Positions 7,120 through 60,972 of a stretch of 64,000 nt of DNA are shown here, piece after piece (position 1 is the first letter of the stretch; each line of letters begins with the position of its first letter). This DNA is from Verrucomicrobiia bacterium (lineage in GTDB: Bacteria > Verrucomicrobiota > Verrucomicrobiia > Chthoniobacterales > Chthoniobacteraceae), in NCBI GenBank assembly GCA_040374425.1, contig JBEIUI010000001.1, positions 2,823 through 66,822 on the forward strand, in the 5' to 3' direction. The position numbers and the translations under genes are program-made. The notes beneath the pieces are model-generated. The model worked only from the letters and a program-made list of their open reading frames with translations. It was not told where the DNA came from and made no database searches.

Positions 7120-7128
7120 CGCCGCCCC

Positions 7129-10264: not shown

Positions 10265-10301
10265 AAGGGAAAAAACTCAGGACGGATCCACGCCGGTGGG
10301 C

Positions 10302-16308: not shown

Positions 16309-16549
16309 AATCAACGAGCAGAAGGGGAGTTGTATAGCCATTACCATGCCTCGCTCCCTGCACTAGATGGACGGCAAGACAGGGTCAACCTTCTAGACAC
16401 CGTCCACGCCCCGCCCGCTGCTCAAAGTCTTTCCCTTCGCAGCCTGCGGTCAATGTTGCGAGCTATCCGACACAGCAATTCATGGAAGCCCAGCAGCCAG
16501 AGCCGTCAGAACTTCGGAGAGCGGCCTGCTGCGGCATCGCACCCCGGGG

Positions 16550-37339: not shown

Positions 37340-40123
37340 CTAACCCGTGGTCCGCAGGCCGCTGGCAATCGCATTGATGGTCAACTGCAGCGACGGCAGC
37401 AGGGCGTCGGATTCTAAGTCGTTGCCCACGGCCCGCAACGCCCGCCACTGCCGCAGGAGATGGATTTCCTGGTGGTGAAGAATCTTGAGGGCCTCGCTGC
37501 GGAGCTGCAGGGTTTTGATCATCCGCGGCCGACGTTCCGCCATGGCGCCGCCTCGAACCTTCTCCAACATCTGCCGAGTCAGCTCCCATTCGGCCAAGAT
37601 CTGCGTCCAGAGACGCTCCCGGAGCGCGGGGTCATCGACCAAGTCGGTGTAGGCGCGCATGAGCTCCGGGTCGGAGCTGGCGATTGAAGACTCGATGTTG
37701 GTGAGCACATACCGCAGGAAGGGCCAGGAACGCAGATGCTGACGCAGGGCTTCGAACTCTTCATCGCTGAGCTGGCTGAGCGCGCTGCCAGCCCCATACC
37801 AACCGGGAACGTAGAACCGCGCCTGGTTCCAGCTAAACACCCAGGGGATCGCCCGAAGATCGGCAAGACTGGCTTGACCCGTTCGGCGCGACGGCCGCGA
37901 GCCGATCCGGCTGTGTTCGAGGGCGTCGATGGGAGTTGCCTGCCGGTAAAATGTAAGAAAACCGTCGGCATCCAGCAGGGAGCGGTAGGCGCGCCGGCTT
38001 GACTCGGCGAGTTTCTCAAGAACCGGATCGAGTTCATGCCGGCCATCGGCGGAAACGCCATGGCGCAAGGTGGTGGCGGTGACACCTGCGAGCAGCAGCT
38101 CCAGATTGTAGGCGGCGGTGGCGTTGTTCCCGAATTTCTGGGCGATCGTCTCCCCTTGCTCGGTGAGCCGGATGTCGCCGCTGAGCGACCCCTGGGGCAG
38201 CGCCTCCAGGAACCGGTGTGTGGGACCCGCACCGCGGCTCACCGTGCCGCCGCGTCCGTGGAAAAACCGGATTGCCACCCCCATCTCGCGCCCGACACCG
38301 GCGAGGCGGGACTGCGCCTTCTGGAGCGCCCATTGGCTGGCGAGAATCCCCGCGTCCTTGTTGCTGTCACTGTAACCCACCATCACCTGCTGAAGAAGCG
38401 ATCCGGGGCGCCCGGCGCGTTTGGCGTGAAACGCGAGGCTGGTCCGGGTCACCGGGGTCTGCAGGAACGCCCCGAGAATATCCGGGCCGCGCTCCAGGTC
38501 GTCGATGGTCTCAAAAAGGGGCACCACCGGCAGAAGGCAAACCAAGCCCTCGGGGAAGCTGCGGAGCAGTCCGGCCTCGCGTGCGAGCAGATAAACCACC
38601 AGCAGGTCACTGAGACGCCGGGTCATGCTCACGATAAGGGAACCAAGCCCCTCGGCGCCGTATGTGTCGATGTGGGACGTGAGAACCCGGTAACAGGCCA
38701 GCACGGTGTCGGCCTCCGGGCCGGCTGAGGCGCTCGGATGCAGGAACGGGCGCGGTGAGCGCAGTTCTTTCTCAAGGAACCGTAACCGCTCCGGCTCGGT
38801 CCACTCCTCCCATTGGCTGCCGTCGAGGCCGGCGGCCACCATCAACTGAGAAAGCGCCTTGGAATGGAAAGCCGAGTTCTGACGAACATCGAGCTGGGCG
38901 AGATGAAAGCCGAACACCTCCAGACTCCGAATCACGGGCTGGACATCGGTTTCGATAAGGCGCTGGGCGCCCACCTCGCGAAGCGACTCGCTTAGCGCTT
39001 CCAGATCGGTCCTGAGTTCGTGGGCGAACCGGTAAAGACCCGAGCCCTCACGCACCTGGGCCAGTTGCCCCGGCACCACCTCCACCGGCAGCCGCGCCAG
39101 AATGAGCTGAACCAACCGACGCCAGGGCTCGTTTTGCGGAGCCGCCAGCAGCGCCTCCGCATCGGGCCCAAGCAAACCCGCAATTCGATTGCGGGCTTCA
39201 ATCAAAGACGGCGGCGGCGGCTGCAGCCATTCGGAAAGACTCAGGCGCTCCGCCAACTGCGTGAGGTGCCGGTGCAACACCACCAGGGCATTGGCCCGGA
39301 GCCGGTCGAGCGTCTCGGCGCTGACTTGGGAAGTCACCCCGGGATGCCCGTCGCGATCGCCGCCCACCCAGGTTCCAAAACGGATGCGCGGCAGGTGCGG
39401 AGCGCCGACAAGCGCCTCGGGATCCAACCCGGAAGAACGCCAAGCGAGCTGGAGACGCCCGTCGAGTTCGGGCAAAACGGCCGGAAAAACGTCGCGCAAA
39501 TAATGGAGAAGATTGCGGCGTTCGTCGGTGAGCGTGGGTTTCTCAAGCAGGATCTCGCCGGTGCGCCAGAGCCGTTCGAGCCCGGCTTTCATCCGGTCAC
39601 GCAGGGAAGCACTCTGGCTGGGGGTCAACCGGAGCTGGTCGCGGGTGACGAGCAGGGCGTAGAGGGCCCGGTGCTGGTCGAGCACCGCAAGGCGCTTGGC
39701 TTCCGTCGGGTGCGCCGTGAGCACCGGTTCCACACGGACCTGCGAAAAAGCGCGGGCGATCGCCTCGGCGCTAAATCCCTCCTCGCGGAGCAAAGCGAGC
39801 TGGTTGCCCCAGAGCCCGCGCTCGGAGGGAAGCCCTTCGTTGGTCTCGCGCAGCGCGCGCATGTCCGCGGCGGCGTTCTCTTCCACCATATTGAGGAGCT
39901 GAAACGCGACAGCGTAAACAAGGCCCAGGTGCGGCGGCAGCTCGTCCACCGGCGTCGGTTTGGGCGACCCGCCCCAAGGCAGCTGATCTGCGAGTTCTTT
40001 TTTCCCCAAGCTCTCGAGCACCTCCCGGAAACAGTCCATGAGGAAGGCGAGGTCGCCATCAATCTTCTCGAATCCGAGTGTGAGGTAGTCCGGCAAAATT
40101 TGTCCTTCGGTGGTTGTGCACAT
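37340..40123 (-). CDS. ppc: Phosphoenolpyruvate carboxylase
   Basis: VLTAHPTE, VMVGYSDSNKDAG, FHGRGGTVSRGAGP, and a C-terminal GLRTTG. Confidence 0.95.
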   Translation of the reverse strand: MCTTTEGQILPDYLTLGFEKIDGDLAFLMDCFREVLESLGKKELADQLPWGGSPKPTPVDELPPHLGLVYAVAFQLLNMVEENAAADMRALRETNEGLPSERGLWGNQLALLREEGFSAEAIARAFSQVRVEPVLTAHPTEAKRLAVLDQHRALYALLVTRDQLRLTPSQSASLRDRMKAGLERLWRTGEILLEKPTLTDERRNLLHYLRDVFPAVLPELDGRLQLAWRSSGLDPEALVGAPHLPRIRFGTWVGGDRDGHPGVTSQVSAETLDRLRANALVVLHRHLTQLAERLSLSEWLQPPPPSLIEARNRIAGLLGPDAEALLAAPQNEPWRRLVQLILARLPVEVVPGQLAQVREGSGLYRFAHELRTDLEALSESLREVGAQRLIETDVQPVIRSLEVFGFHLAQLDVRQNSAFHSKALSQLMVAAGLDGSQWEEWTEPERLRFLEKELRSPRPFLHPSASAGPEADTVLACYRVLTSHIDTYGAEGLGSLIVSMTRRLSDLLVVYLLAREAGLLRSFPEGLVCLLPVVPLFETIDDLERGPDILGAFLQTPVTRTSLAFHAKRAGRPGSLLQQVMVGYSDSNKDAGILASQWALQKAQSRLAGVGREMGVAIRFFHGRGGTVSRGAGPTHRFLEALPQGSLSGDIRLTEQGETIAQKFGNNATAAYNLELLLAGVTATTLRHGVSADGRHELDPVLEKLAESSRRAYRSLLDADGFLTFYRQATPIDALEHSRIGSRPSRRTGQASLADLRAIPWVFSWNQARFYVPGWYGAGSALSQLSDEEFEALRQHLRSWPFLRYVLTNIESSIASSDPELMRAYTDLVDDPALRERLWTQILAEWELTRQMLEKVRGGAMAERRPRMIKTLQLRSEALKILHHQEIHLLRQWRALRAVGNDLESDALLPSLQLTINAIASGLRTTG

Positions 40124-40235
40124 GCCGGGGTCCTTCTCTGCCCATCCAACAGCCTCAGAGCAAGCCTTTCGACGCAGCAAACCCGCTTTGCTCTTCCCGT
40201 GCGGGGTTCAAATTTGCACAGATGTGCCCTTTTCC

Positions 40236-41534: not shown

Positions 41535-42593
41535 ATGAAAACCCTTCGCGAGCAGTACGACGGCGTCGAGCGCCTTCTCGAATTCGATTTTGTCCGGGCA
41601 ACCGAAAACGCCTCTCTGAACTCTCTTAAATGGCTGGGACGCGGGGAGAAAGAACTAGCCGACGCGGCCGCCTGCGACGCGATTCGGGGGATGTTCGACA
41701 ACATGGACATCAGCGCGGAGGTGGTGATCGGGGAAGGCATTAAAGACAACGCCCCGGGTATCTTCAAAGGCGAACACCTGGGGTCTTGGAAGCCGGGAAC
41801 CACCCGTTTTGACATCGCGCTCGACCCAATCGACGGCACGACCAACATCGCCAAAGGCTCGCCCAACTCGATTTCCTGCATCGCGGCGGCCATTGTTCAG
41901 GAGGGCGAAAAATACTCCCTCAAAGACATCCCGTCTTTCTACATGATCAAGCTCGCTTACGGCCCGGAGGTGGTCAATCACATGGCCCGCACCGGGGTGA
42001 GCTCCCTTTCCCTGCTCAGCCCCGTTTCGGAGAACATCCAGGCCGTGGCGGATATCCTCAAAAAACGCGTGCAGGACGTTGTGGTGCTGGTCATGGACCG
42101 GCCACGGCATCAGAAACTCGTGGAGGAAATCCGGGCCACCGGAGCCGCGCTGCGGATGATTTCCGACGGCGACATCGCGGCAGCGCTCGCTCCGTCCATT
42201 CCCGACTCGGGGGTGGATCTTTTTGTGGGCACGGGCGGGTCACCGGAGGCGGTGCTGGCCTCCGCCGCGCTCAAATGCCTGGGAGGCGACATGCAGTCCA
42301 TGATGTGGCCGCGGGACGAGGCGGAGCGCAAAGAACTCATCGAGCAGGGATACGGAGAGGAACTCTCGAAGCTCTTTTACGCCGGGGACCTCGCCCAAGG
42401 CCCCAACATCATCTTTTGCGCGACGGGCATCAGCGACAGCCCACTACTGCGCGGGGTGCGAGTCCACAAACACCGGGCCATCACCCAGACCGTGCTGATG
42501 CGGGCCAAAACCCATTCCCTGCGCTACATCGAGACGCATCACGAGTTACGCACCAAAAAAATCCCGCTCCGGTCCGAAAACCGCGACCAATAG
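41535..42593 (+). CDS. glpX: Class II fructose-1,6-bisphosphatase
   Basis: RATENASLNSLKWLGRGEKELADAAA, IGEGIKDNAPGI, LDPIDGTT, GTGGSPEAVLAS. Confidence 0.93.
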   Translation: MKTLREQYDGVERLLEFDFVRATENASLNSLKWLGRGEKELADAAACDAIRGMFDNMDISAEVVIGEGIKDNAPGIFKGEHLGSWKPGTTRFDIALDPIDGTTNIAKGSPNSISCIAAAIVQEGEKYSLKDIPSFYMIKLAYGPEVVNHMARTGVSSLSLLSPVSENIQAVADILKKRVQDVVVLVMDRPRHQKLVEEIRATGAALRMISDGDIAAALAPSIPDSGVDLFVGTGGSPEAVLASAALKCLGGDMQSMMWPRDEAERKELIEQGYGEELSKLFYAGDLAQGPNIIFCATGISDSPLLRGVRVHKHRAITQTVLMRAKTHSLRYIETHHELRTKKIPLRSENRDQ

Positions 42594-43457: not shown

Positions 43458-44138
43458 CTAATGGCGAGTCACAAAAGTCTTGGAGCCCGTGCGCAGATCC
43501 TTGATCACGGTGCAGAGATAAACCGGGGCCGGGTAAACCTCGCGGTATTTGGTGATCTCAGCCTTGTTGAACACCCGGAATCCGTAGCGTTCGAAGAGTT
43601 TCGCGCCGCGCCGCTCCTCGAACACGACCATTTGGCCGTAAACGGCGGGCACACCGTGCTGGCGGAGATGATCGAGGAACCCCTCCACCAAGGCCCGCGT
43701 GGTGGCGAGCTGGCGGGCTTCTGGGAGGAGATTGAGATGGAAATGCGCCATGCGCCGGGGGGCGTCGGGCACTTCTTTCCGTGCCCGGCGCAAAATCCAG
43801 CGCACAAACTTCTTCGATGCGGGGTTATACCGCGGATACCGGGCGACCCCGCGCAGGAAAAGGCTGAGCGCCTGGAAAACTCCGTGGCACTGCTGGCGAA
43901 ACCAGCGCCGGGCGCCGAGCAGGTAACCGCAAATCTCGCCGTTGACGAGCACGACAAACGCCGACTCCGGCTCCCAATCGGTGTAGTAAGCCGTCAGATA
44001 ATCGGCGAAGAGCTCCAGATCCTCGAACACCGGTGCGATGGAGTTCCCCAGAAACCCCGTGGCGCAGCACAGTTCCCTGACCCGAGCCCGATCGCCCGGC
44101 TCATACCTGCGGATCTCGATGTGGCGCGGGGTAGTCAC
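43458..44138 (-). CDS. GNAT-family N-acetyltransferase
   Basis: IEIRRYEPGDRARVRELC at the N-terminus and RRGAKLFERYGF as the acetyl-CoA loop. It overlaps the upstream GT4 gene by 4 nt. Confidence 0.7.
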   Translation of the reverse strand: MTTPRHIEIRRYEPGDRARVRELCCATGFLGNSIAPVFEDLELFADYLTAYYTDWEPESAFVVLVNGEICGYLLGARRWFRQQCHGVFQALSLFLRGVARYPRYNPASKKFVRWILRRARKEVPDAPRRMAHFHLNLLPEARQLATTRALVEGFLDHLRQHGVPAVYGQMVVFEERRGAKLFERYGFRVFNKAEITKYREVYPAPVYLCTVIKDLRTGSKTFVTRH

Positions 44139-45337
44139 AGTTTTGAGCCGCGCCGGGCGAAGTCGCGGACGACTTCCCGGTAGATTTCAAAAAGGCGCCC
44201 GAAAACTTCGGGCCATCCGTATTGGGAGGCGACCCGGGCGTGCAGACCCAGGGGATCGGTTTTTGAAGGCTGTCGCGTGGTCTCATCGATCGCCGCCGCC
44301 AGAGCCTCCGCCGAGTTTTCACGGGCCCAGAGGGTTTGGTCACTGTGCACGATCCGGTCCATGTAACTGCCCCGGATGCCGAGGACCGGGGTGCCGCAGG
44401 CTTGGGCTTCCAAGGTGACCAGGCCGAAGGTTTCCTGAACGCCGGGATGCACGAAAAGATCCGCCCCGCGATAGATCCGGGCCAGCCGTTCGGGCTCTTC
44501 GCAATGCGACATCCAATGCACCGGAGAGCCGGCCCCGTCGCTGAGATCCCGTTGCAAAGCCTGGAGTTCGCCTCTTTGGAGGCCGTCACCGACCACGAGC
44601 AGTTGGAACCGGCCGGGGCAGCGGCTATGGAGCAGCCGAAAGGCTTGGAACAACGTGTGGGTGTTTTTCTCCTGCGCCAGCCGCCCGACATAGAGCAGCA
44701 GAATCGGCCCGGCGGGGATGCCCCATTCGGCCCGGACATCCTCACCGGGCTGCGGCTGCGGCCGGAAACAGGCCGCATCCACCCCCAGATCCGTGGTGAC
44801 GAGATTTTCCACACCCCATTGTTTTAAAACCTCGGCCAATGCCGGGGCGGGCACCAAGGTCCGCTCAAACCGGTTGTAAAGCTGGCGCACATAACACCGG
44901 GCAAGGCCCATTGAAAATTCCGTAGCCGTGCGGCCCAGGAACTTCTGGGCGGAGCGCAAATAGGCTTCCGGGAAATGGGAATGATAAAAGCCCACGACAG
45001 GGATCCGGAGGGCGGCGCCGGAAAACACTGCTTTCCAAGCGAGCTGATACGGGTCCCCGGACTCGATCAAATCGGGGCGTTCCTGCTCCAGAACCCGCGC
45101 CACCGCCTGGAGCCGGACCAGTGCCCGGTACTGCGAGGTGCGGGAGATCAGCGGGGAACGCACGGTGTAAACCCGGGAACGATCAGACTGGGACACCTCA
45201 TCGCGGTCCCCGGGGATGATGAGGACGTGTTCGTCGGCCGTGGTGTGCTCGCGCACGTAGCGCACCTTCTCAGACACGTACCGCTTCACCCCTCCGCTTA
45301 AAGGGGAATAAAACTGCGTAAGATCGCAGATTTTCAC
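44135..45337 (-). CDS. Glycosyltransferase family 4 (GT-B fold)
   Basis: MKICDLTQFYSPLSGGVKRYV at the N-terminus and a C-terminal E-x7-E region (ETFGLVTLEAQACGTPV). Confidence 0.85.
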   Translation of the reverse strand: MKICDLTQFYSPLSGGVKRYVSEKVRYVREHTTADEHVLIIPGDRDEVSQSDRSRVYTVRSPLISRTSQYRALVRLQAVARVLEQERPDLIESGDPYQLAWKAVFSGAALRIPVVGFYHSHFPEAYLRSAQKFLGRTATEFSMGLARCYVRQLYNRFERTLVPAPALAEVLKQWGVENLVTTDLGVDAACFRPQPQPGEDVRAEWGIPAGPILLLYVGRLAQEKNTHTLFQAFRLLHSRCPGRFQLLVVGDGLQRGELQALQRDLSDGAGSPVHWMSHCEEPERLARIYRGADLFVHPGVQETFGLVTLEAQACGTPVLGIRGSYMDRIVHSDQTLWARENSAEALAAAIDETTRQPSKTDPLGLHARVASQYGWPEVFGRLFEIYREVVRDFARRGSKL

Positions 45338-46345: not shown

Positions 46346-46514
46346 AATGGGCGCAGAGTTAAGCGGAGCGACTCGGGAGGCGCAAACGCCTTCTCAATCC
46401 GCGCCCGGAAAGGGTTTTCCCAATTCCGCTGCCTGAATACTCGACGCATTGGCAGGAAACTGGCTCATTCCGAAAGTTGTCGTGAAACGTCTCCGCCAGA
46501 ACCTGCCCCAAAAA

Positions 46515-48008
46515 ATGAACAAACCGGCGCCCGCAAGCTCAGCCAAGCATTACGTGCTGGATACCAACGTGCTGATCCACGACCCGCAGTCGATGTTTCA
46601 GTTTGAGGAAAACAACGTCTGGCTGCCCGTGGAAGTACTCGAGGAGCTCGACCGGTTTAAATCCGAGTCCACAACCCGGGGCGCAAACGCACGCGAAGTG
46701 CACCGGCGCTTGAACGAGCGTTTCAGCACCACAGAACACATGAAAGCTGGGGTGCCTCTGGAAAACGGGGGCCGGCTCCGGGTGTGCATCAACCCGCACA
46801 TCAAATTTGACGAGCGCGGCTGGCAGATTCTTAACGCGTCCTCCCGGTTCAAGATGGTTAAGGCGCTTTTCCCGGACCTCACCCTGGCCGACAACCGGAT
46901 CCTGGCCAGCGCGGTGTACGTGGCCGACACCCAGACCTCGCAGACCATCCTGGTCACCAAGGACATCAACATGCAGCTCAAAGCCCGCACCCTGGGGCTG
47001 GAGGCGGAGGATTACCGGACCGACCGGGTGGAGGACAATGACATCCGGCGCAGCCAACGCCCGAGTGCCAGCGAGGAGGTCGAAACCATCGATATCCCCG
47101 GCTACACCCTCCAGGCATTTGCGAGCCAGGAACATCTCGCGCTCAAGGACTGCGCGCAACTCTTGCCCAACCAATACGTGCTCCTTCGCAACGAAGAAGA
47201 ACACAGCCACGGAGTCCCGGCCCGGCACTTTCGCGGAGGCGAGTTCCGCAAGCTGCGGCACGACCACATTACCATCCGCGGGGGACGCACCTTTCAGGCC
47301 GCCAACCTCGGCCAACGTTTCCTGCTCGACGCCCTCTACGACCCCGAGATCACCCTGGTGACCGTCTACGGCAAAGCCGGCACGGGAAAAACCCTGCTCA
47401 CCGTGGGAGCCGCCCTCGAGCAGGTTCAGAACGGGGATTACGAAAAAATGCTCATCACCCGGGTCATCATGCCGACCGGGCGCGACATCGGCTTTCTGCC
47501 CGGGCGTATGGAGGAAAAAATGCAGCCCTGGGTTCAGCCCGCCTACGACGCTTTGGAGCAGCTGCTTTCGCGTCCGCGCAAGCCCGAGCAGTTCGACAAG
47601 AAAAAGCAGAGCGCGCGCAAAACCAACACCGCGCCGGCAAAGCCGCAGCCGCCGACGCCCGGCAAAGTCGCGCGGCCTTACGAACCGCTGATGCAGGCGG
47701 GACTGCTGGAGATCGAGGCCATCGCGCATATCCGCGGGCGTTCGATCCCCCGGGCGATTTTCATCGTGGATGAAGCCCAGCAACTCACCCCGCACGAGGC
47801 CAAAACGCTGGTCACCCGCATGGGCAAAGGCAGCAAAATCATCATGATCGGGGACTTGGCGCAGATCGACAACCCGTATGTGGACGCCCACACCAACGGT
47901 CTGGTTTACACGCGCAACCGGCTGCAGGGAGAGAATTTCATGGCACACGTGAACCTCTTCAAGGGCGAACGCAGCGAGATGGCGGAGGTGGCCGCCAACC
48001 TCATGTGA
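46515..48008 (+). CDS. PIN-domain plus PhoH-like ATPase (YlaK family)
   Basis: YVLDTNVLIHDP (PIN), Walker A GKAGTGKTLL, Walker B IFIVDEAQQLTPHE. Confidence 0.9.
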   Translation: MNKPAPASSAKHYVLDTNVLIHDPQSMFQFEENNVWLPVEVLEELDRFKSESTTRGANAREVHRRLNERFSTTEHMKAGVPLENGGRLRVCINPHIKFDERGWQILNASSRFKMVKALFPDLTLADNRILASAVYVADTQTSQTILVTKDINMQLKARTLGLEAEDYRTDRVEDNDIRRSQRPSASEEVETIDIPGYTLQAFASQEHLALKDCAQLLPNQYVLLRNEEEHSHGVPARHFRGGEFRKLRHDHITIRGGRTFQAANLGQRFLLDALYDPEITLVTVYGKAGTGKTLLTVGAALEQVQNGDYEKMLITRVIMPTGRDIGFLPGRMEEKMQPWVQPAYDALEQLLSRPRKPEQFDKKKQSARKTNTAPAKPQPPTPGKVARPYEPLMQAGLLEIEAIAHIRGRSIPRAIFIVDEAQQLTPHEAKTLVTRMGKGSKIIMIGDLAQIDNPYVDAHTNGLVYTRNRLQGENFMAHVNLFKGERSEMAEVAANLM

Positions 48009-49077: not shown

Positions 49078-49806
49078 ATGGCTTACAAGATCGACCTGCA
49101 CTGCCACTCCTGGTTCTCGGCGGACGGCGTCAGCAGTCCCGAGTCAATGGTCGCCTCGGCCCGGCGCAAGGGCGTGGACGGGCTGGCGCTGACCGATCAT
49201 AACACCTGCGAGGGCTATTTTGACCTGGTCGACCGCGGCCTGGCCCGGACCGACGGCCAGCCCGTCGACGGTTTTCTGGTGATCCCGGGCGTGGAGATGA
49301 GCACCGCCGAAGGGCATCTGCTCTGCCTCGGGGTGACTCTGCCCAATTTGAAGGGAACCCCGGCAGCCGAGGTCTGCCGCCAAGTGCATGCGCTGGGGGG
49401 CCTGGCGATTCCCGCGCATCCCTACGACTTTCTCCGAGCCGGCATCCGCGAGGCGGTGCTGGAGACCCTTGAGATCGACGCGCTGGAGGTGTTCAACGCC
49501 GCCACCACTTTGAAGAGCTGCAACCAAAGGGCCCTCGAATTCGCCCAACGCCGTCAACTCCCCATGACGGCCGGGAGCGACGCCCACCACAACGCCGCTG
49601 TGGCTACGGCTTACACGATCCTGCCGACCGACAACTTTTCTGTGCGCGGCATTCTCGACCAGATCCTGCGGGGCACGCAGCGGGAGGAAAAATACCTCAC
49701 CGCAGCCGACGCGCTTCGCAAGACAATGAACAACTGGTTGCGGCTTCGGAAAAAACGGGTGCGTCGGGGCGGGGGCCATGGGCCAGGGGGGAGGAGCCAG
49801 GGGTGA
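49078..49806 (+). CDS. PHP-domain metal-dependent phosphoesterase
   Basis: KIDLHCHSWFSADG, LALTDHN, AHP, and GSDAHH motifs. Confidence 0.85.
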   Translation: MAYKIDLHCHSWFSADGVSSPESMVASARRKGVDGLALTDHNTCEGYFDLVDRGLARTDGQPVDGFLVIPGVEMSTAEGHLLCLGVTLPNLKGTPAAEVCRQVHALGGLAIPAHPYDFLRAGIREAVLETLEIDALEVFNAATTLKSCNQRALEFAQRRQLPMTAGSDAHHNAAVATAYTILPTDNFSVRGILDQILRGTQREEKYLTAADALRKTMNNWLRLRKKRVRRGGGHGPGGRSQG

Positions 49807-50022: not shown

Positions 50023-51180
50023 TTACAAGAGCCTTCCTGAGAAGAGCAGTAGACCGAAACAAACGGCGTGGAAAGTGAGGAGGACGTTCACCCAGCGCCA
50101 GACCGGGCCTTCGGGCCAGCGTTTCTGGTGTTTATCCCACCTCGCAAACGCGTCGTAACCGGAGAGCAGAGCGGCGTGGTAGATCCCGTAGAGGATGTAA
50201 TGGAGCTGCGTGCCGTGCCAGACGCCCATCAGGCCGAAAGTCAGAAACAGCCCGAGATAGGAGGAGGTGTATTTGCCCTTAAACCATTTGCCCTTGGAGG
50301 CGGCTAAAAGGAACCGCATGTAAACGTGGTCCCGGAACCAGAAGGAGAGCGACATGTGCCAGCGATTCCAAAAATCGCGGATGTTCGCCGCAAGGAACGG
50401 CAGGTTGAAGTTCTCGGGGGTGTGGACCCCGAAGAGATAACTCACGGCAATCGCAAACGCGCTGTAGCCCGCAAAATCAAAGAAGAGGTAGAAGCTGTAG
50501 GCATACATGGAGCTCAACAGCTCCAGCACGCCCCCGCCCGTGCCTACCCGGTCTAACCAGTAAGTTTTGATGAGCGCCGCGAGAATGAATTTGTAGAGGA
50601 ACCCCCGGAAAACCCGCTCCACCGCCCCGTCGAGATCCTGGAGAAACTCCTGGCGGTTCCGGCGCCGATTCCAGTCCTGCGTGAACCGGCGATAACGATC
50701 GATCGGGCCGGAGGAAAACGTCGCAAAGAAAAACAGGTAGGCCGCGAACTGGGCCGGGGAGAGGGATTTGATGACTCCATCGTGGATGCTGAAAATGACA
50801 TCCAACGCCCGAAACGTGACGTAGGAGATGCCGAGAAACCCGAAAGCGGTGCCCGGCCAGAGCTCGGGCAGGAACTTCGCCGCGGCGAGAGGCGCAATGG
50901 AGAAAGCCAAGGCCCAGGGGAAAAGCCGGCGGGATTTCCATTTTAAAAACGCCCAGCTCAGCGCGCCTTGATAGACGAGGAACCCGAGCGCGATGGTCAA
51001 CTCGCGCACCGCGATGCCGGGGCGAACGACCAAGGGATGGTTGAGATGCACCAGGAGCATGGCCCCGCTCGCCAGGAGCGCCCAACGCGCGTTGGCCTTT
51101 CCGAAAAGCCCCAACACAACGGTGGGCACCAGCAGATAAAGCAACAGCCCGAAATAGGTGAAATCAGCGTAGGGGCTCAT
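50023..51180 (-). CDS. dltB: MBOAT-family D-alanyl transfer protein DltB
   Basis: The N-terminus MSPYADFTYFGLLLYLLVP is DltB-like. MBOAT core FWNRWHMSLSFWFRDHVY with the conserved His. Polytopic. Confidence 0.9.
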   Translation of the reverse strand: MSPYADFTYFGLLLYLLVPTVVLGLFGKANARWALLASGAMLLVHLNHPLVVRPGIAVRELTIALGFLVYQGALSWAFLKWKSRRLFPWALAFSIAPLAAAKFLPELWPGTAFGFLGISYVTFRALDVIFSIHDGVIKSLSPAQFAAYLFFFATFSSGPIDRYRRFTQDWNRRRNRQEFLQDLDGAVERVFRGFLYKFILAALIKTYWLDRVGTGGGVLELLSSMYAYSFYLFFDFAGYSAFAIAVSYLFGVHTPENFNLPFLAANIRDFWNRWHMSLSFWFRDHVYMRFLLAASKGKWFKGKYTSSYLGLFLTFGLMGVWHGTQLHYILYGIYHAALLSGYDAFARWDKHQKRWPEGPVWRWVNVLLTFHAVCFGLLLFSGRLL

Positions 51181-51260
51181 GGGTGGGCAGGAGTGCTACA
51201 TGATTCCAGCCTCAGGAGCCCACGGTTTTTTAACCAAACCGCCCAGGCGCACCCTCCGGA

Positions 51261-52727
51261 TCAGAGCAGCTCGGCCAGTTTCCGACGATCGGCCTTGCCG
51301 TTGGCTGTCATCGGGAACGCCTCCAAAAACCTGAACTTCCGGGGCACCATGTAGGCGGGCACGCGCTCGGCCAGTCCGGCCTTGAGCCGGCTCGAAAAGT
51401 CGAACTCCGAGCCCTCCCAAGCCACGGCCGGCACGACAAACGCCATGAGCGATTCGATCCGGTCGCCCTTGCTTACAGGCAACACCACGGCATCGGCTAC
51501 TTCGGCTAAGGCGCGCAGGTTGGCTTCCAGATCCCCCAGCTCAATCCGGTACCCATTGACCTTCACCTGTCCGTCCATGCGCCCCTCAAAAAAGAGGAGG
51601 CCGTCGCGTTCCCGCCCCCAATCACCCGTGCGATAAGTGCGTGCAGGCGCCTCGTCGAAAAACACCTTGGAGGTGAGATCTTCCCGCCCCAGGTAACCCG
51701 GGCTCACGTTGGGTCCCGCGATGAGGATCTCGCCGCGTTCGCCTTCCGGCGCCCTCTGGCCGTCTTCGGAGCAAATAAAAACCCGGGTCCCGCGCATCTC
51801 GCGGCCCACCGGCAGGGGCGAATAACGCTCCAACACATCGCGAGTCACCTGAATGGAAGTCGTGGCCACGGTCGCCTCGGTCGGGCCGTAGGTGTTCCAC
51901 AGGGACGCCTTGGGAAACCGCTCCAGCAACTGGGAGGCGGTCTCAGGAGCGAGCGTTTCTCCGCAGAAAAGAAACCGGCGCAGCGTCGGCACCATCGCCT
52001 CCCTGAACCCGCGCTCGATCAAACACATCTGGGCAAAGGACGGAGTGGAAACCCAAGTGGTCACCCCCGAACGCCCCAGCGCTTCGTAGAGTTTTTTGAG
52101 GTTAGCCACCTCCTCCTTGGTGATGCTAAAGAGCGTGCCGCCAGTGACGAGGCTCAGGTAAAGGTCCATCACCGAGAGATCGAAGGAGAACGGGGCCTGG
52201 TTGAGAAAGGTTTCGCCCGGAGCAAGGAACGATTGTTCGTCGCACATCCAATCCACAAACACCTCGAGATTGGCCAGGGTGATAATGACCCCCTTGGGTT
52301 CGCCGGTGCTACCCGAGGTGAAGAGGATATAGAACGGGTCCTGCCCCTCCACCCGGTTCAACCCGCCCCCCCCCCCCGCCGCAGTCTCCGCGCACAGCGT
52401 GGCGATCCGCTCCGGGTTCAGCACCACAGCCGCTCCGGAGCTCTGCACAATGCGTTCGATGCGATGCGCAGGGATCGATACGTCGATCGGCACATACGGA
52501 CGCCCCGATTTCACGGCTGCCAGGAAAGCGACGAGCATTTCCGGCTCTTTATGCCCGGTCACCGCCACTGGCGCGCGGCTGCCCGGGAACTGGGTCTCAA
52601 GCCAATGCGCCAGGGAATCGGACCGTTCGAGAAGTTCGCCGTAGGTGAGCTGGCGGCCCGCACTCACATGCGCAAGGGACTCCGGCGCGACTCGCCCCCA
52701 ATGATCAATGCGATCGAGCAGATGCAC
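51261..52727 (-). CDS. dltA: D-alanine--D-alanyl carrier protein ligase DltA
   Basis: FTSGSTGEPKGV, QAPFSFDLSVMDLY, TWVSTPSFA, YRTGD, and a C-terminal NGKADR. GTG start, 5 nt after the dltX stop. Confidence 0.9.
   Translation of the reverse strand: MHLLDRIDHWGRVAPESLAHVSAGRQLTYGELLERSDSLAHWLETQFPGSRAPVAVTGHKEPEMLVAFLAAVKSGRPYVPIDVSIPAHRIERIVQSSGAAVVLNPERIATLCAETAAGGGGGLNRVEGQDPFYILFTSGSTGEPKGVIITLANLEVFVDWMCDEQSFLAPGETFLNQAPFSFDLSVMDLYLSLVTGGTLFSITKEEVANLKKLYEALGRSGVTTWVSTPSFAQMCLIERGFREAMVPTLRRFLFCGETLAPETASQLLERFPKASLWNTYGPTEATVATTSIQVTRDVLERYSPLPVGREMRGTRVFICSEDGQRAPEGERGEILIAGPNVSPGYLGREDLTSKVFFDEAPARTYRTGDWGRERDGLLFFEGRMDGQVKVNGYRIELGDLEANLRALAEVADAVVLPVSKGDRIESLMAFVVPAVAWEGSEFDFSSRLKAGLAERVPAYMVPRKFRFLEAFPMTANGKADRRKLAELL
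52366..52377. repeat. C12 (G12 on the coding strand) homopolymer inside dltA
   Basis: Counted directly: 12 consecutive C at 52366-52377. They encode the GGGGG run in ...TAAGGGGGLNRVEG.... Confidence 0.9.
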
Positions 52728-52732
52728 AGCGC

Positions 52733-52876
52733 CTAGAACCCTTGGTAAACAAACGAGGGTGTGGAAAAATCGCCGCGCCCATAGATGGCGAGCAACCCCG
52801 CGATGATCGCGAAGTAATAGAGCGCCAGAAGCGCGATCCGTGCACGAGGCCTCGCCTCAAACCAAGAAACTGTCAT
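52733..52876 (-). CDS. dltX: DltX-like small membrane protein (47 aa)
   Basis: MTVSWFEARPRARIALLALYYFAIIAGLLAIYGRGDFSTPSFVYQGF has a single TM helix and ends in F-V-Y-x-x-F, like the DltX FIYNEF C-terminus. It sits 4 nt after dltC and 5 nt before dltA. Confidence 0.7.
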   Translation of the reverse strand: MTVSWFEARPRARIALLALYYFAIIAGLLAIYGRGDFSTPSFVYQGF

Positions 52877-52880
52877 CCCG

Positions 52881-53138
52881 CTACGCGGCCAAGCGGCCAA
52901 GCACGTCAGCCACCAGTTGACGAGGGGTGGCCCAGTTTTCCCGTTCAAATTCAGCCGGCGAGATTTCCACGCCAATCTCAGCTGAGAGCGCGACAATGAG
53001 CTCCACGGTCTTCATGGAATCGAGCACCTGCAGATCATACAAGGCAAGGTCCGGATTCGAACACACCTCATAGCTTTCAGCGACGTTGGCGAGGACTTCG
53101 AGGATGCGTTCAGCGGTATCGGGGGCTACGAGGTTCAT
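52881..53138 (-). CDS. dltC: D-alanyl carrier protein DltC
   Basis: 85 aa. LDSMKTVELIVALSAEIGVEISPAEFERENWATP parallels the B. subtilis DltC segment LDSFGTVELLLAIE...EFDRDVWNTP. The Ser in DSM is the phosphopantetheine site. Confidence 0.88.
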   Translation of the reverse strand: MNLVAPDTAERILEVLANVAESYEVCSNPDLALYDLQVLDSMKTVELIVALSAEIGVEISPAEFERENWATPRQLVADVLGRLAA

Positions 53139-53223
53139 AGGGATGAGGGGAGGATGGGGGGCTGGGGGTACTGGGTTCCGGAGGAGGGAATTCGGGAGAC
53201 GGGGGAGGGGAATCTTAGGGGAC
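53139..53223. other. Polypurine, G-run-rich tract on the + strand (polypyrimidine leader on the dlt mRNA strand) directly upstream of dltC
   Basis: About ten runs of at least 3 G within roughly 85 nt, read directly from the sequence. The region abutting the dltC ATG has no purine-rich Shine-Dalgarno on the coding strand. Confidence 0.85.
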
Positions 53224-53421
53224 TTGCCTTTAACGTATGATCGAATCCCTTGAAAACTTGGAGCTTTTTTTTACGGCGGGAAAAAACCCGGTGCCGCATC
53301 GGGCCCGCGAACTGGAAACATTGCTTTATCTGGCAAGACAACACATTGGGAACACTCGAAAGTTAAGCGTTCAATGCCTCTGACGTGCCGCAGACGCTCT
53401 CTGCGCTTCAATCCGCCTCGA

Positions 53422-54702
53422 TCAAGGCTTCTCCGGGACCTCACCGGAGGCCGGTGCGGAAAGAAATCGCCCGTGATAAAAGTCATCGAGTGCCTTGTTG
53501 TAATAAAGCCAGCCCTCGCCGCTGAGGTGATCCAGGAAATCCACGGTGAATCCCGGGCTGGCTTCGCTGGCCGGGAAATCCGCCAAGGGGATGTTGTATT
53601 TCGTGGCCAACTTGCGCAAACGTCCCGTGTAAGCGGCGCGGGAAGAAGCCGAAATTCCGTACACCTCCAGGCGAATATCCTCGATGGGAATACTCAGGAG
53701 AAGCGGCTGGGCACCTAATTCAACAAACGTCCGCAGCAGCAGCTCAAAATCGGTCCATTCGCGGGCCCTGACGAGGGACTCCATGAAAACGAGATCCCGG
53801 GAGGACTTCGGGATTTTTTTCTTGGCGATCTCTTTGAGTTTGGACTGAACGGCGGCGGCATTGACGAATTTGGCGGCCTTTTTGAGCAGCTCGCTCCAAT
53901 TGAGCCCGCGCAAGCCACGCCGGGGAGTGGGGTTGAGTTTTTCATCCCACTCGAGGATGTACAGAGCCGACTCTACGTGATCCTGCATCCGGGCCACACC
54001 GGAGTGGAGTTTGCCGAGGGGCCAGACCAGCCCGTAAAGAATGCGATCGAGCCAGCGGTCTCTGGCGAGGTGACTCAGGGTAAATCGGAGAAGGGGCCGC
54101 GAATTGAGCGTTTTCGGAAAAGCCAACATGCGCCGGGCGACGTCGCGCTTGAGTGCGTGACTTAACTCCGAGCTAAAGGCCATTTCATAGGCCTGCATTT
54201 CTGAGAAATTGCCCTCGTAAAACGAGGGATCGAAAACCTCGGTAAAAAACCAGCCCGGTGAGATGGAGAAAGCCAGTTTTTTTCCGCGCACGCCAGCCCC
54301 CACCCCGGCCACCTTCTGGAGCACCGCCAGCGAGGTTGTCCCGGGTTTACCCACGGGAAACACCCGGAACCCGGTGGGATAATCCGCGAAGAACTGGTTG
54401 GCGTTGTTGGGCATGGTTTTGTGCAGCTCGGAGCTGCCGTAAAACACGAGGAGCTCGGGCTCTTCAAACGCGTGTCTCTGGAGGACGACCCCCTGAAGTT
54501 TCTCGGCGTTAAACTCCGGGGCCAGTGCATGAATGTAGCGCTTTTCGAGGCGCTCACACCAAGTCCAGCAAGCCCACACCAGCAACGCCCCCAGCAGCAA
54601 TGCACCCCCTGCGGCGATCAAATTCCTGGCGCCCGCATCGGCAACCGCCGCCTTCCGGGGGGCCACCGGGCTACCTGGCTTTTCTGAGGAAGAATCGCTC
54701 AT
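53422..54702 (-). CDS. dltD: DltD-like (SGNH-like) D-alanyl transfer protein
   Basis: N-terminal TM anchor, LVFYGSSEL (the DltD GSSE nucleophile motif), and C-terminal FTVDFLDHLSGEGWLYYNKALDDF (the D-x-x-H motif). Confidence 0.8.
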   Translation of the reverse strand: MSDSSSEKPGSPVAPRKAAVADAGARNLIAAGGALLLGALLVWACWTWCERLEKRYIHALAPEFNAEKLQGVVLQRHAFEEPELLVFYGSSELHKTMPNNANQFFADYPTGFRVFPVGKPGTTSLAVLQKVAGVGAGVRGKKLAFSISPGWFFTEVFDPSFYEGNFSEMQAYEMAFSSELSHALKRDVARRMLAFPKTLNSRPLLRFTLSHLARDRWLDRILYGLVWPLGKLHSGVARMQDHVESALYILEWDEKLNPTPRRGLRGLNWSELLKKAAKFVNAAAVQSKLKEIAKKKIPKSSRDLVFMESLVRAREWTDFELLLRTFVELGAQPLLLSIPIEDIRLEVYGISASSRAAYTGRLRKLATKYNIPLADFPASEASPGFTVDFLDHLSGEGWLYYNKALDDFYHGRFLSAPASGEVPEKP

Positions 54703-54783: not shown

Positions 54784-56559
54784 CTACAAGCGGGACACGA
54801 GCAGTTCACGCTGGAAAATGAGCTCTTTGGGAAACCGGTCATGCAGGGTGAGGAACAACTCGGTTTGAGAGATGAGTTCCCGGTGCCATTCGCCCCCGTC
54901 AATACGCATGCATTCGTCGAATTTCTCCCGGGGATAATCGATCCCCGTCCAGTCAAACTCCTCGTAATGTGGCATCCAACCGATCTGTGTTTCCCGCGCC
55001 TTGGCCCGGCCGTGGCATCGGTCGATGACCCACTGCAAAATCCGGAAGTTTTCCCCGAACCCGGGCCAGAGGAACTGGTCTTCGGCGTCTTTGCGGAACC
55101 AGTTCACGTGGAAAATACGGGGCGGATCGCTCAGATCCCTGCGGATCCCCAACCAGTGGTTGAAGTAATCGCCCATGTTGTAACCGCAGAAGGGTAGCAT
55201 CGCCATCGGATCGCGGCGCACCTGACCGAGGCTGCCCACAGCTGCGGCCGTGGTTTCCGATCCCATGGTGGCCCCGAGATACACGCCGTGGACCCAGTTA
55301 AAGGATTGAAAAACCAGTGGCATGGTGGTGGCGCGGCGGCCCCCGAAAATAATCGCACTGATGGGCACCCCGGTCGCCTCCAATGCTTCGGGTGCCAGCA
55401 CCGGGTTGTTGGTCATCGGGGCGGTAAACCGGCTGTTGGGATGCGCCGCTTTTTCACCTGATTCGGGACTCCACGGCTGGCCCTTCCAATCCAACGTGCC
55501 GGGAGGCGCTGGCTCATCCTTGCCCTCCCACCAAACGTCGCCGTCGGGAGTGAGCGCGACGTTGGTGTAGATCGTGTCCCGGGCAATGGTCAGCATCGCG
55601 TTCGGGTTGGACTTGTAGTTGGTGCCGGGGGCGACCCCGAAATATCCCGCCTCCGGGTTGATGGCGTAAAGCCGGCCATCGGCGCCCGGCTTCATCCAAG
55701 CGATGTCGTCTCCGATGGTGGTAATCTTCCATCCCGGGAACTGGTCCGGGGGAATGAGCATGGCGAAATTGGTCTTTCCGCAGGCGCTGGGAAACGCGGC
55801 TGCCACGTAGGTTTTCTCCCCAGCGGGCGATTCCACGCAGAGAATCAGCATGTGCTCGGCCATCCATCCCTGGATGCGGCCCAAATAACTGCCGACACGC
55901 AAAGCCAAACATTTCTTACCCAGCAACACGTTGCCGCCGTAGCCGGATCCGACCGAGATGATGGTGTTATCCTGAGGGAAATGGCAGATGAAGCGCCGTT
56001 CGGGGTTGCAATCGAGCACGCTGTGGATGCCCCGGTTGAAATCGTCGCCATCGCCGAGCTGCTCCAGAGCCACCCGCCCCATGCGCGACATGATGCGCAT
56101 GTTGAGCACCACATAGATCGAGTCGGTCAGCTCCACGCCGATCTTGGTGAGGGGCGACCCCTGGGGGCCCATCAGATAAGGCACCACGTACATCGTGCGC
56201 CCCTTCATCCCGCCCCGCAGCATCCCGTAGAGCTTCTCATACATGTCCCGGGGCGGCGCCCAGTGGTTGGTCGGCCCGGCCTCGTCCCGTGCCGGGGTGC
56301 AGATGTAGGTGCACTGCTCGACTCGGGCCACATCGTTCGGGTTGGACCGGTGGTAATAACACCCGGGCAGTTTCTCCTGGTTCAGCTTCAACAAAACCCC
56401 CTGCGCCACGGCGGCCTCCAAAAGACCCGCTTTTTCCTCCTCACTGCCGTCGCACCAAAACACCTGGTCCGGCGTGGTCAATGCGGCAATCGTCTCCACC
56501 CATTTTTTGAGGGTCACGTTATTTGAGGTGGAAGTTCCAAAGGTGGTCCCGGTTTCCAT
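54784..56559 (-). CDS. pckG: Phosphoenolpyruvate carboxykinase (GTP)
   Basis: FPSACGKTN kinase-1a motif, GDDIAWM, NWFRKD, and overall GTP-PEPCK architecture. ATG at 56559 (METGTTF). Confidence 0.95.
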
Positions 56560-56777
56560 AGGAAAAGTATTAATCGCCAACCCTTCTCCGGAAGGCAAGG
56601 CACGGGAATTTTTTCAAAAGTGAATCCTCAGCCGGGCCCAACTCCTCTCGCAGTCCTCCCAGGGCCCCCTTTTTCCTCCCGGGGATGCCGACCGACGCGG
56701 ATGAATTCCCGCCCAATCCCCCCCTGTTGATTTGGCAGTTTGCTCCCATAGCCCAAAGCCCGTATGTTCGAGACAGC

Positions 56778-59382: not shown

Positions 59383-60972
59383 ATGGCTGATCACGGATAC
59401 CTCGCGCTGGTTCTTCACGCACACCTCCCCTACGTGCGGCATCCGGAATATGATGAATTTCTGGAGGAAGACTGGCTGTATGAAGCCATCTCCGAGACGT
59501 ATCTGCCGCTCTTGGAGGTGCTCTACGGGCTGAGCGACGAGAAAATCCCCGCGCCGATCACGCTGTCACTAACCCCGCCGCTCTGCCACATGCTGCGGGA
59601 CCCGCTTCTTCAGGAGCGCTATGGGCGGTACTTGGAACGGTCGATTGATCTGGCCCGCCGGGAAACCGAACGCACCCGGGGCCAGGACCGCCTCGAATCC
59701 ATCGCGTCGTTTTATCTCGATCGGCTCCTCCACATTCAGACCGCCTACGAGACGCGCTGGAAACGGGATCTCGTCGGCGCTTTTGCCGAACTCCAAAACC
59801 GCGGCGCCATTGAGATCATCACCTGCGCGGCGACCCACGGGTTTCTGCCCCTGATGGAGAACTTCCACGAGGCCGTGCGCGCCCAGGTGCTCATCGCCTG
59901 CGATCATTACCGGGAAATGTTCGGGCGCCCACCGCGCGGCATCTGGCTGCCGGAATGCGCCTATGTGTCCAGCCTCGACGAGGTGCTGCGCCAGGCCGAC
60001 CTGCGCTGGTTTGTCGTCGACGCCCACGGGCTGATGTTCGGCGCTCCCAGACCCCGCTACGCGATTTACGCCCCCTGCTTCACACCGGCCGGCCCCGCCG
60101 CATTCGGCCGGGACCGGGATTCGAGCCGCCAAGTGTGGAGCGCCGAGGAGGGTTATCCCGGCGACCCGGCCTACCGCGATTTCTACCGCGACATCGGGTT
60201 TGAGCTGTCGGTGGATTACCTGCGCGACTTCCTCCCCGGGGATGGCACCCGCAAATTCACCGGGCTCAAGTATCACCGGGTCACCGGGCCGACTCCGGAC
60301 AAGGATCTTTACCGCCGGGACTGGGCGCTGGGGGCGGCGGATCATCACGCCGGGCATTTCATGGCCAGCCGGGCGGCGCAAATCTCCAACCTGCGCCAGC
60401 ACATGAACGTGCCGCCGATCGTCCTCAGCCCGTTTGACGCCGAGCTCTTCGGCCACTGGTGGTTTGAGGGCCCGGAATTCATCAACCTTTTCCTGCGCAA
60501 AGCGGTACACGACCAGCGCGAGTTTGTCCTCACCACGCCCTCCCAATACCTCACCCGGCACGACACCCATCAGCTCGCCGTTCCGTCCGCCTCAAGCTGG
60601 GGCCACAAGGGCTACTGGGAGGTCTGGCTCGATGACAGCAACTCCTGGATCTATCCCCATCTCCATGTCGCCGCCCGCCGGATGACGGAAATGGCGCGCA
60701 CCCACGCCCAGACACCGCCCTCCGGGCTTCTCGACCGCGCCCTGCGGCAGATGGCGCGCGAACTCCTGCTCGCGCAGTCGAGCGACTGGGCGTTTCTGAT
60801 GAAAACCGGTACGGCAAAAAACTACGCAACCAAGCGCACCAAGGATCACATCCTGCGGTTCACCCGGCTCTACGACCAAGTCCGCGCGGACGCCATTGAC
60901 GCGGCGTTTCTGGAAAACTGCGAATGGCGCGACAACATCTTCCCAGATCTCAATTGGCGGCACTATGTCTGA
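59383..60972 (+). CDS. GH57-family 1,4-alpha-glucan branching enzyme
   Basis: YLALVLHAHLPYV, WLPECAY, and a C-terminal DUF1957-type helical domain (QSSDWAFLM). Confidence 0.9.
   Translation: MADHGYLALVLHAHLPYVRHPEYDEFLEEDWLYEAISETYLPLLEVLYGLSDEKIPAPITLSLTPPLCHMLRDPLLQERYGRYLERSIDLARRETERTRGQDRLESIASFYLDRLLHIQTAYETRWKRDLVGAFAELQNRGAIEIITCAATHGFLPLMENFHEAVRAQVLIACDHYREMFGRPPRGIWLPECAYVSSLDEVLRQADLRWFVVDAHGLMFGAPRPRYAIYAPCFTPAGPAAFGRDRDSSRQVWSAEEGYPGDPAYRDFYRDIGFELSVDYLRDFLPGDGTRKFTGLKYHRVTGPTPDKDLYRRDWALGAADHHAGHFMASRAAQISNLRQHMNVPPIVLSPFDAELFGHWWFEGPEFINLFLRKAVHDQREFVLTTPSQYLTRHDTHQLAVPSASSWGHKGYWEVWLDDSNSWIYPHLHVAARRMTEMARTHAQTPPSGLLDRALRQMARELLLAQSSDWAFLMKTGTAKNYATKRTKDHILRFTRLYDQVRADAIDAAFLENCEWRDNIFPDLNWRHYV

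Follow-up and report, generated by a model that had tools for sequence, protein, structure and literature searches.

We analysed a 64,000-nt stretch of contig JBEIUI010000001.1 (the window) that carries, on its minus strand, the five genes of a D-alanylation (dlt) system. Judged by its sequence, this locus, which belongs to a Chthoniobacter species (Verrucomicrobiota), very probably encodes a working Dlt pathway. The open reading frame (ORF) listing for 47-58 kb gives five co-directional genes in the order D-C-X-A-B, separated by 283, 4, 5, and 80 nt, so that C-X-A forms a tightly packed block with junctions of only 4-5 nt. A first-pass annotation of the same DNA had read these ORFs as a full Dlt set lying between pckG and a PHP phosphoesterase gene. 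Its coordinates and all four spacer lengths were reproduced exactly, and both flanking genes were found (Table 1). The peptide motifs that it quoted are all in the translations, save for one reading in DltD that is corrected below. It had also noted that the order is not the X-A-B-C-D of Firmicutes. This too was borne out, the Firmicute order being seen in an annotated Bacillus cereus plasmid record, although the adjacent X-A-B core is kept in the window.

Table 1. Features of the window, with positions counted from its first nucleotide; the dlt genes and their flanks come first.
Feature	Position	Strand	Description
dltD	53422-54702	-	426 aa; predicted membrane-anchored SGNH-like D-alanyl transferase
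dltD-dltC spacer	53139-53421	-	283 nt
dltC	52881-53138	-	85 aa; predicted D-alanyl carrier protein
dltX	52733-52876	-	47 aa counted from first ATG; predicted membrane microprotein with acyl-shuttle tyrosine
dltA	51261-52727	-	488 aa; GTG start; DltA-family adenylation enzyme
dltB	50023-51180	-	385 aa; predicted MBOAT D-alanyl transferase
pckG	54784-56598	-	GTP-dependent phosphoenolpyruvate (PEP) carboxykinase; flanks dlt on the same strand
PHP gene	49078-49806	+	PHP-domain metallohydrolase/phosphoesterase; flanks dlt, convergent
TolC/OEP-family gene	8873-10264	-	PF02321 167 bits; TIGR01844 E 7e-46
AcrB gene	10302-13454	-	PF00873 1080 bits
Membrane fusion protein (MFP) gene	13461-14654	-	contiguous with the AcrB-TolC efflux operon
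ORF	14869-16347	-	492 aa
DUF7133/HEAT/cupredoxin gene	17745-21728	-	1327 aa
GlgC gene	23668-24960		
PEP carboxylase gene	37340-40180		
GlpX-type fructose-bisphosphatase gene	41535-42593		
ORF	43458-44138	-	226 aa
GT4 glycosyltransferase gene	44135-45337	-	
PIN-PhoH fusion gene	46449-48008	+	
GH57 branching enzyme gene	59383-60972		

Four of the five proteins scored above the cut-offs of curated family profiles. DltA reached 568 bits against NF003417 (cut-off 476) and DltB 433 bits against TIGR04091 (cut-off 375). DltC passed both NF003464 (73.7 bits, cut-off 68) and TIGR01688 (67.9 bits, cut-off 52.35), as did DltD for PF04914 (178 bits, cut-off 22.7) and TIGR04092 (164.6 bits, cut-off 150). 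The first-pass assignment of all five proteins to Dlt families was therefore upheld by profile for A, B, C, and D, while DltX fell just below the Pfam gathering score.

The best PDB sequence match for DltA is the B. cereus enzyme (E 8e-151, residues 1-485 aligned), and B. subtilis DltA, a further top match, aligns from end to end (E 6e-142). Identity to B. cereus DltA is 47-49%, and for DltA of Lachnospiraceae and Streptococcaceae only 38-39%. In the characterised DltA pocket, Asp197 is the ligand of the amino group, Cys269 is the main selector of the enantiomer, and Lys492 is the ligand of the carboxylate (PMC4176424). The window's DltA keeps the equivalents of Asp197, Cys269, Val301, and Lys492 (B. 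cereus numbering), and the pocket strand FSFDLSVMD, which includes Asp197, is identical between the two proteins. Position 303 is Thr, not Val. After the DltA proteins, the next PDB match is the glycine-activating domain of LgrA (425 bits). A neighbour-joining tree of DltA set all dlt-linked sequences compared, that of the window included, together against adenylation enzymes resembling those of nonribosomal peptide synthetases (100% bootstrap). Within it, DltA from Verrucomicrobiota, Planctomycetota, Chloroflexota, and Gemmatimonadota formed a group at 70%. The pocket residues point to D-alanine as the likely substrate, in keeping with the DltA assignment made at first pass.

DltB aligns over residues 2-384, end to end, with Streptococcus thermophilus DltB (6BUG, E 4e-71) and retains the two conserved histidines, one in NRWH and one in GVWHG. 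Its C-terminus (...LLLFSGRLL) has neither an FxYxxF motif nor fused shuttle helices. The best PDB sequence matches of DltC are DltC proteins, and its phosphopantetheine serine, in LDSMKTVEL, aligns with the serine of those proteins. DltX has one hydrophobic (transmembrane) helix and a C-terminal F-V-Y-Q-G-F that fits FxYxxF, the "acyl shuttle" whose tyrosine relays D-alanine from DltB to DltD (PMC12148441). The position and motif of DltX are conserved in twenty-eight loci. Against the annotated B. cereus DltX its identity is 45% over 29 aa, and Firmicute DltX in the loci compared ends in GGGF[IV]YNEF. A PDB sequence search with DltX returned nothing meaningful, and its exact sequence is absent from a collection of 15 billion proteins. 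The gene has been called in two relatives and was left uncalled by gene finders on the near-identical contigs L080 (8300-8454), L081, and L082.

Many Chthoniobacterales have a longer DltB, whose C-terminus is prolonged by a conserved stretch of about 105 aa (loci L002, L003, L007, L008, L010, L011, L013, L017, L019, L026, and L028). The extension consists of a Pro-rich linker and then a domain of the pattern C..I.G..WDR...VDIY.D....RV.A..FR.DL..RG.G.G.H.F, for which Pfam and PDB sequence searches gave no significant match (chance-level hits only, E 0.03-0.5). It is absent from the window and from L034 and L004-L006, and no remnant of it was found downstream of the window's dltB. At L083, the length of the called dltB (9213-10682, 489 aa) suggests the extension by length alone.

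The predicted DltD nucleophile is Ser90, in GSSEL, and the C-terminal histidine is His392. The first-pass annotation had given the C-terminal motif as D-x-x-H; the sequence instead reads D-x-x-x-H (V-D-F-L-D-H, that is D388-F-L-D391-H392), with one Asp at -4 and a second at -1. This one-residue insertion is common to nearly all non-Firmicute relatives, and Ser90, D388, D391, and H392 are invariant among thirty-one Chthoniobacterales sequences. An AlphaFold (AF2) model of DltD (predicted local distance difference test, pLDDT, 71; predicted template modelling score, pTM, 0.74) was compared with the PDB. The twelve best fold matches were all DltD crystal structures (6PFX, 6O93, 3BMA, 7DXM; E 3e-11 to 1e-7), whereas generic SGNH esterases matched only at E>0.2. 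Two DltD paralogues occur in each of three other loci (L012, L018, L028), a possible sign of more than one acceptor.

In the 283-nt spacer between dltD and dltC, a short GC stem is followed by a T6 run and then by A8, and a strongly C-rich leader precedes dltC. Conservation of the spacer is limited to near-identical contigs and, in part, L034; in other Chthoniobacterales the two genes are 10-120 nt apart. A promoter and terminator scan found nothing above shuffled expectation. We considered a regulatory RNA in the spacer and dropped the idea: Rfam gave no match at E<=1, the z-score for folding is -1.57, and conservation ends with the species. The spacer may separate two transcription units, with dltD transcribed together with pckG and apart from dltCXAB.

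We scanned one genome per species, which returned the full module in about thirty loci from four phyla. The D-C-X-A-B order occurs in about twenty metagenome-assembled genomes (MAGs) of Chthoniobacter, Chthoniobacteraceae, Udaeobacter, and other Verrucomicrobiota, and is kept in three Chloroflexota loci (L023, L030, L032). Most Chloroflexota loci (Anaerolineae, Chloroflexia), all Gemmatimonadota loci, and a divergent Chthoniobacterales MAG (L029) have C-D-X-A-B. One Planctomycetaceae locus reads D-X-A-B-C, and two Firmicute loci, like the annotated B. cereus plasmid, read (X)-A-B-C-D. With D-C-X-A-B recurring across Chthoniobacterales and other Verrucomicrobiota, the rearrangement described at first pass is, on the loci compared, a lineage trait that is shared with other phyla. 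The order of the dlt genes is a family habit and not a functional requirement. Two further loci carry less of the set: L001 (7470-9549) has D-C-X-A followed by a citrate transporter gene, with no dltB within 8 kb, and the 2-Mb contig L084 has only D-C-X at the site (6001-7751).

The pckG-dlt-PHP-DUF1802 context is conserved within the genus, DUF1802 and PHP staying beside dltB throughout. The closest genomic relative is a MAG labelled Chthoniobacter flavus (DltA 90% and PckG 96% identical, nucleotide identity 85-91%), and near-identical contigs are present in the ENA and Logan metagenome assemblies. These relatives put the locus in Chthoniobacter (Spartobacteria/Chthoniobacterales), so the earlier placement near Opitutales was wrong. 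Compared with L034 (Nei-Gojobori), the ratio of nonsynonymous to synonymous substitution rates (dN/dS) is 0.064 for dltB, 0.092 for dltA, 0.175 for dltX, 0.063 for dltC, and 0.128 for dltD, next to 0.063 for pckG. From these values (0.06-0.18) all five dlt genes, even the tiny dltX, are kept by purifying selection. The GC content of the dlt genes is 0.59-0.61 in surroundings of 0.60-0.65, and their GC content at third codon positions (GC3, 0.66-0.79) matches that of their neighbours, which argues against a recent import.

A search of 5.8 billion proteins with DltD gave 303 matches, and the best 120 of the 303 are 55-100% identical. Several DltD relatives already bear the name 'D-alanyl-lipoteichoic acid biosynthesis protein DltD [Chthoniobacter sp.]' or 'D-alanine transfer protein', and the DltB and DltC clusters include entries called 'membrane protein involved in D-alanine export' and 'D-alanine--poly(phosphoribitol) ligase subunit 2'. 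Since NCBI and JGI names of this kind exist on relatives, automatic annotation recognises the locus, DltX excepted. With hundreds of metagenomic relatives, it is neither rare nor unnoticed at the annotation level. The first-pass annotation knew of no characterised dlt locus in Verrucomicrobia; likewise, our literature search, which was partly swamped by soil-community papers, turned up no publication on dlt in Verrucomicrobia or Chthoniobacter. Nothing was found on dlt in other environmental phyla.

The same contig carries a TolC-AcrB-MFP operon. Tripartite resistance-nodulation-division (RND)/TolC efflux, together with a lineage in the Planctomycetes-Verrucomicrobia-Chlamydiae (PVC) group, makes a diderm host with an outer membrane well supported, as had been claimed. 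A 492-aa ORF without a Pfam or NCBIfam match precedes this operon.

We infer the route of transfer from homology with the Firmicute system. DltA would adenylate D-alanine in the cytoplasm and attach it through a thioester bond to the phosphopantetheine arm of DltC. The inner-membrane MBOAT protein DltB would then carry the D-alanyl group across the membrane onto Tyr44 of DltX (in FVYQGF), from which it would pass, on the periplasmic face, to Ser90 of the membrane-anchored DltD. DltD would esterify a hydroxyl of an anionic envelope acceptor. The added free amino groups would lower the negative surface charge and with it the binding of cationic peptides such as polymyxins.

Several observations weigh against a working D-alanylation pathway. 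Identity to the B. cereus proteins is only 30% for DltC and only 27% for DltD. DltA misses the equivalog model TIGR01734 by 7 bits (553 against a cut-off of 559.85), and DltX has only 22.2 bits against PF12459 (E 1e-4), for which the gathering score is 25. DltD has D-x-x-x-H in place of the SGNH D-x-x-H (the Firmicute Asp is at -3), and its model has low confidence near Ser90 and Asp388, which leaves the triad geometry putative. When the genes in about 8 kb around dlt were called by GC3 and clustered for thirty-three loci, no non-dlt family was found to travel with the module across phyla. The cluster might instead be a decaying or silent relic of horizontal acquisition without present function, and the fragmented clusters of some relatives (L001 without a nearby dltB, L084 with only D-C-X) could be taken in this sense. 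We consider this highly improbable for the window, where the five ORFs are intact, dN/dS is low, composition is native, and the pckG-dlt-PHP synteny is shared across the genus. Another reading keeps the pathway but changes its cargo: the DltA homologue would activate a different small acid (glycine, L-alanine, or D-serine), and the modification would not be D-alanylation. The narrow miss of TIGR01734, the LgrA match, and Thr at position 303 would fit such an enzyme. However, the four conserved pocket equivalents, the identical FSFDLSVMD strand, and the place of DltA in the fully supported dlt-linked clade all speak for D-alanine, and we regard a different substrate as improbable. A functional Dlt pathway acting with D-alanine is the reading that we prefer.

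Apart from the genus-level synteny (pckG, PHP, DUF1802), only generic two-component sensors recur near dlt. In other phyla Pfam identifies the immediate neighbours as unrelated housekeeping genes (citrate transporter, ThiC, glutamine synthetase III, MFS sugar transporter, phosphoesterase). With no neighbour conserved across phyla, nothing points to the acceptor, and the module behaves as a self-contained cassette. No teichoic-acid, LtaS, TagF, OpgB, or lipid A-modification gene was recognised in the 64-kb window. In the Planctomycetaceae locus L014, a gene for a membrane-anchored protein of the sulfatase family lies upstream of dltD, at a distance of about 2 kb (about 3.5 kb from dltA). We followed this LtaS-like lead and rejected it, its only relative (in L030) being a soluble SGSH-type sulfatase.

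The acceptor is very unlikely to be a classical wall teichoic acid. Our best guess is a glycolipid or glycan that bears phosphate and is handled on the periplasmic side of the inner membrane; it might be the core or lipid A of lipopolysaccharide (LPS) before export, or else a glycerophosphate-carrying molecule resembling lipoteichoic acid (LTA) or a periplasmic glucan. We rate these two kinds of acceptor about equally, as tentative candidates, and a protein lower. LPS that is D-alanylated on lipid A or core at the periplasmic face before Lpt export, as proposed for soft-rot enterobacteria, would suit a diderm host, and the Dickeya literature groups dltXABCD with LPS-modification genes. ArnT and EptA, which also modify the charge of lipid A, work at this same face of the inner membrane. 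On the other hand, no LPS gene is linked to dlt in any locus surveyed, and Anaerolineae and other Chloroflexota, a phylum that, to our knowledge, is generally regarded as free of LPS, have close orthologues of the whole module, with the X-A-B core unchanged and DltA 57-63% identical. With one dlt lineage in LPS-bearing phyla and in Chloroflexota, either DltD has switched targets in the course of the lineage or LPS is not what it modifies. Even for Bordetella the acceptor is described as unidentified (PMC9410548).

The same distribution speaks for a glycerophosphate-bearing membrane glycolipid or polymer (LTA-like, a glycerophosphorylated periplasmic glucan, or a lipid derived from phosphatidylglycerol) common to the diderm phyla and the Chloroflexota of this lineage. 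That Verrucomicrobiota, Planctomycetota, Gemmatimonadota, and Chloroflexota have one conserved module in common makes an acceptor independent of the outer membrane more likely, and DltD shares its predicted fold and nucleophile with enzymes acting on LTA. Yet LtaS-, TagF-, and OpgB-type genes were not seen in the window, nor consistently near dlt elsewhere, and the sulfatase-family gene beside the Planctomycetaceae cluster has only a soluble counterpart. We also know of no report of teichoic-type polymers in Verrucomicrobia, which counts against such an acceptor. A protein acceptor has a precedent cited in PMC9410548, but no candidate substrate gene co-occurs with the cluster, and we think it unlikely. 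More broadly, it is conceivable, if doubtful, that the dlt lineage with D and C placed first (Chthoniobacterales, Planctomycetota, Gemmatimonadota, Chloroflexota) D-alanylates a novel acceptor independent of Gram-positive wall architecture, for instance a glycerophosphate-bearing LTA-like glycolipid or glucan.

About forty-five window proteins were scanned with Pfam, and the genes found around dlt are those of core metabolism, not of an envelope island. Gluconeogenesis and glycogen genes are prominent: GlgC, PEP carboxylase, a GlpX-type fructose-bisphosphatase, the GTP-dependent PEP carboxykinase, and a GH57 branching enzyme. Beyond the PHP gene, a PIN-PhoH fusion is followed by a SUI1-family gene and then by the DUF1802 gene. 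About 5 kb from dlt, a GT4 glycosyltransferase resembles NF053787, 'N-acetylglucosaminyl phosphatidylglycerol synthase', over its full length (272 bits, E 4e-81; the cut-off of 480 bits is not reached). Its gene shares 4 nt with a 226-aa ORF that has no family match, and the enzyme may represent another modification of membrane-lipid headgroups. Farther away lies a gene for a protein of 1327 aa in which a GDSL-lipase-like N-terminus is joined to DUF7133, HEAT repeats, and, at the C-terminus, a cupredoxin domain. The protein is of a kind common in PVC genomes, and a ThuA-like gene follows.

Compared with the Firmicute dltXABCD operon (Bacillus, Staphylococcus, Streptococcus), which serves the D-alanylation of LTA and wall teichoic acid, the window has the same five families, a DltX with FxYxxF, an adjacent X-A-B core, and the same catalytic residues apart from the spacing of the DltD Asp. 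Identities to the B. cereus operon are 45% for X, 47% for A, 45% for B, 30% for C, and 27% for D, the acceptor-facing DltD being the most diverged. The differences are the D-C-X-A-B order, the one-residue insertion that gives DltD its D-x-x-x-H, and the host itself, as Chthoniobacter is diderm and has no known teichoic acid. In the last respect the nearer parallel is in Proteobacteria, where dlt-like loci were known, as the first-pass annotation noted. Both dltXABCD of Dickeya and Pectobacterium, thought to act on LPS, and dra of Bordetella pertussis combine a Dlt module with an outer membrane, a non-teichoic acceptor, and a presumed resistance to cationic peptides. The host phyla differ, and Dickeya keeps the Firmicute order, which the Chthoniobacter locus does not. 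A plasmid search for Gram-negative dlt matched only Firmicute plasmids. Outside Verrucomicrobiota, the nearest relatives are those in MAGs of Chloroflexota, Gemmatimonadota, and Planctomycetota (DltA 54-63% identical). They share the DltX tail YGRGDF..P.F[IV]YQxF, the DltD D-x-x-x-H, and D and C upstream of X-A-B, but differ in having D and C swapped (C-D-X-A-B) or, in the one Planctomycetaceae locus, C after B.

Two other kinds of Gram-negative envelope modification resemble parts of this pathway. The O-acetylation pairs of MBOAT and SGNH proteins (PatA/PatB, AlgI/AlgJ/AlgX, WssH) have the same relay from MBOAT to a tyrosine shuttle to an SGNH serine at a diderm inner membrane. Those pairs, however, use acetyl-CoA as donor, have the shuttle fused to the MBOAT protein, and lack a ligase and a carrier (PMC12148441), whereas the window has DltA, DltC, a separate DltX, and an unfused DltB. 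In Vibrio cholerae AlmEFG, which adds glycine to lipid A, a DltA-like ligase and a DltC-like carrier also serve to modify the charge of a Gram-negative envelope. AlmG is a lipid A acyltransferase of the cytoplasmic face and not an MBOAT/DltD pair. No member of the AlmG/LpxL-like acyltransferase family was found among the window proteins scanned, which have an MBOAT protein and DltD instead. The locus is an uncharacterised member of the known Dlt system, in a situation like that of the proteobacterial dlt loci, and not a new kind of system. Its enzymes are conventional, its change of gene order is a lineage habit, and it gives no new handle on the acceptor.

The wider lineage adds broad and perhaps phylogenetically independent cases to the Dlt systems of bacteria with an outer membrane. 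The presence of the same module in LPS-bearing phyla and in Chloroflexota offers a comparative handle on the acceptor, though these hosts are less tractable than the models available in Proteobacteria. Chthoniobacterales, to which Candidatus Udaeobacter belongs, rank with the most abundant bacteria in soil. Conserved masking of surface charge in this order would bear on how its members tolerate the polymyxin-type and other cationic antibiotics of their neighbours. If the lineage with D and C first does act on an acceptor of its own, its dlt genes would be a widespread intrinsic determinant of cationic-peptide resistance in some of the most abundant bacteria in soil.

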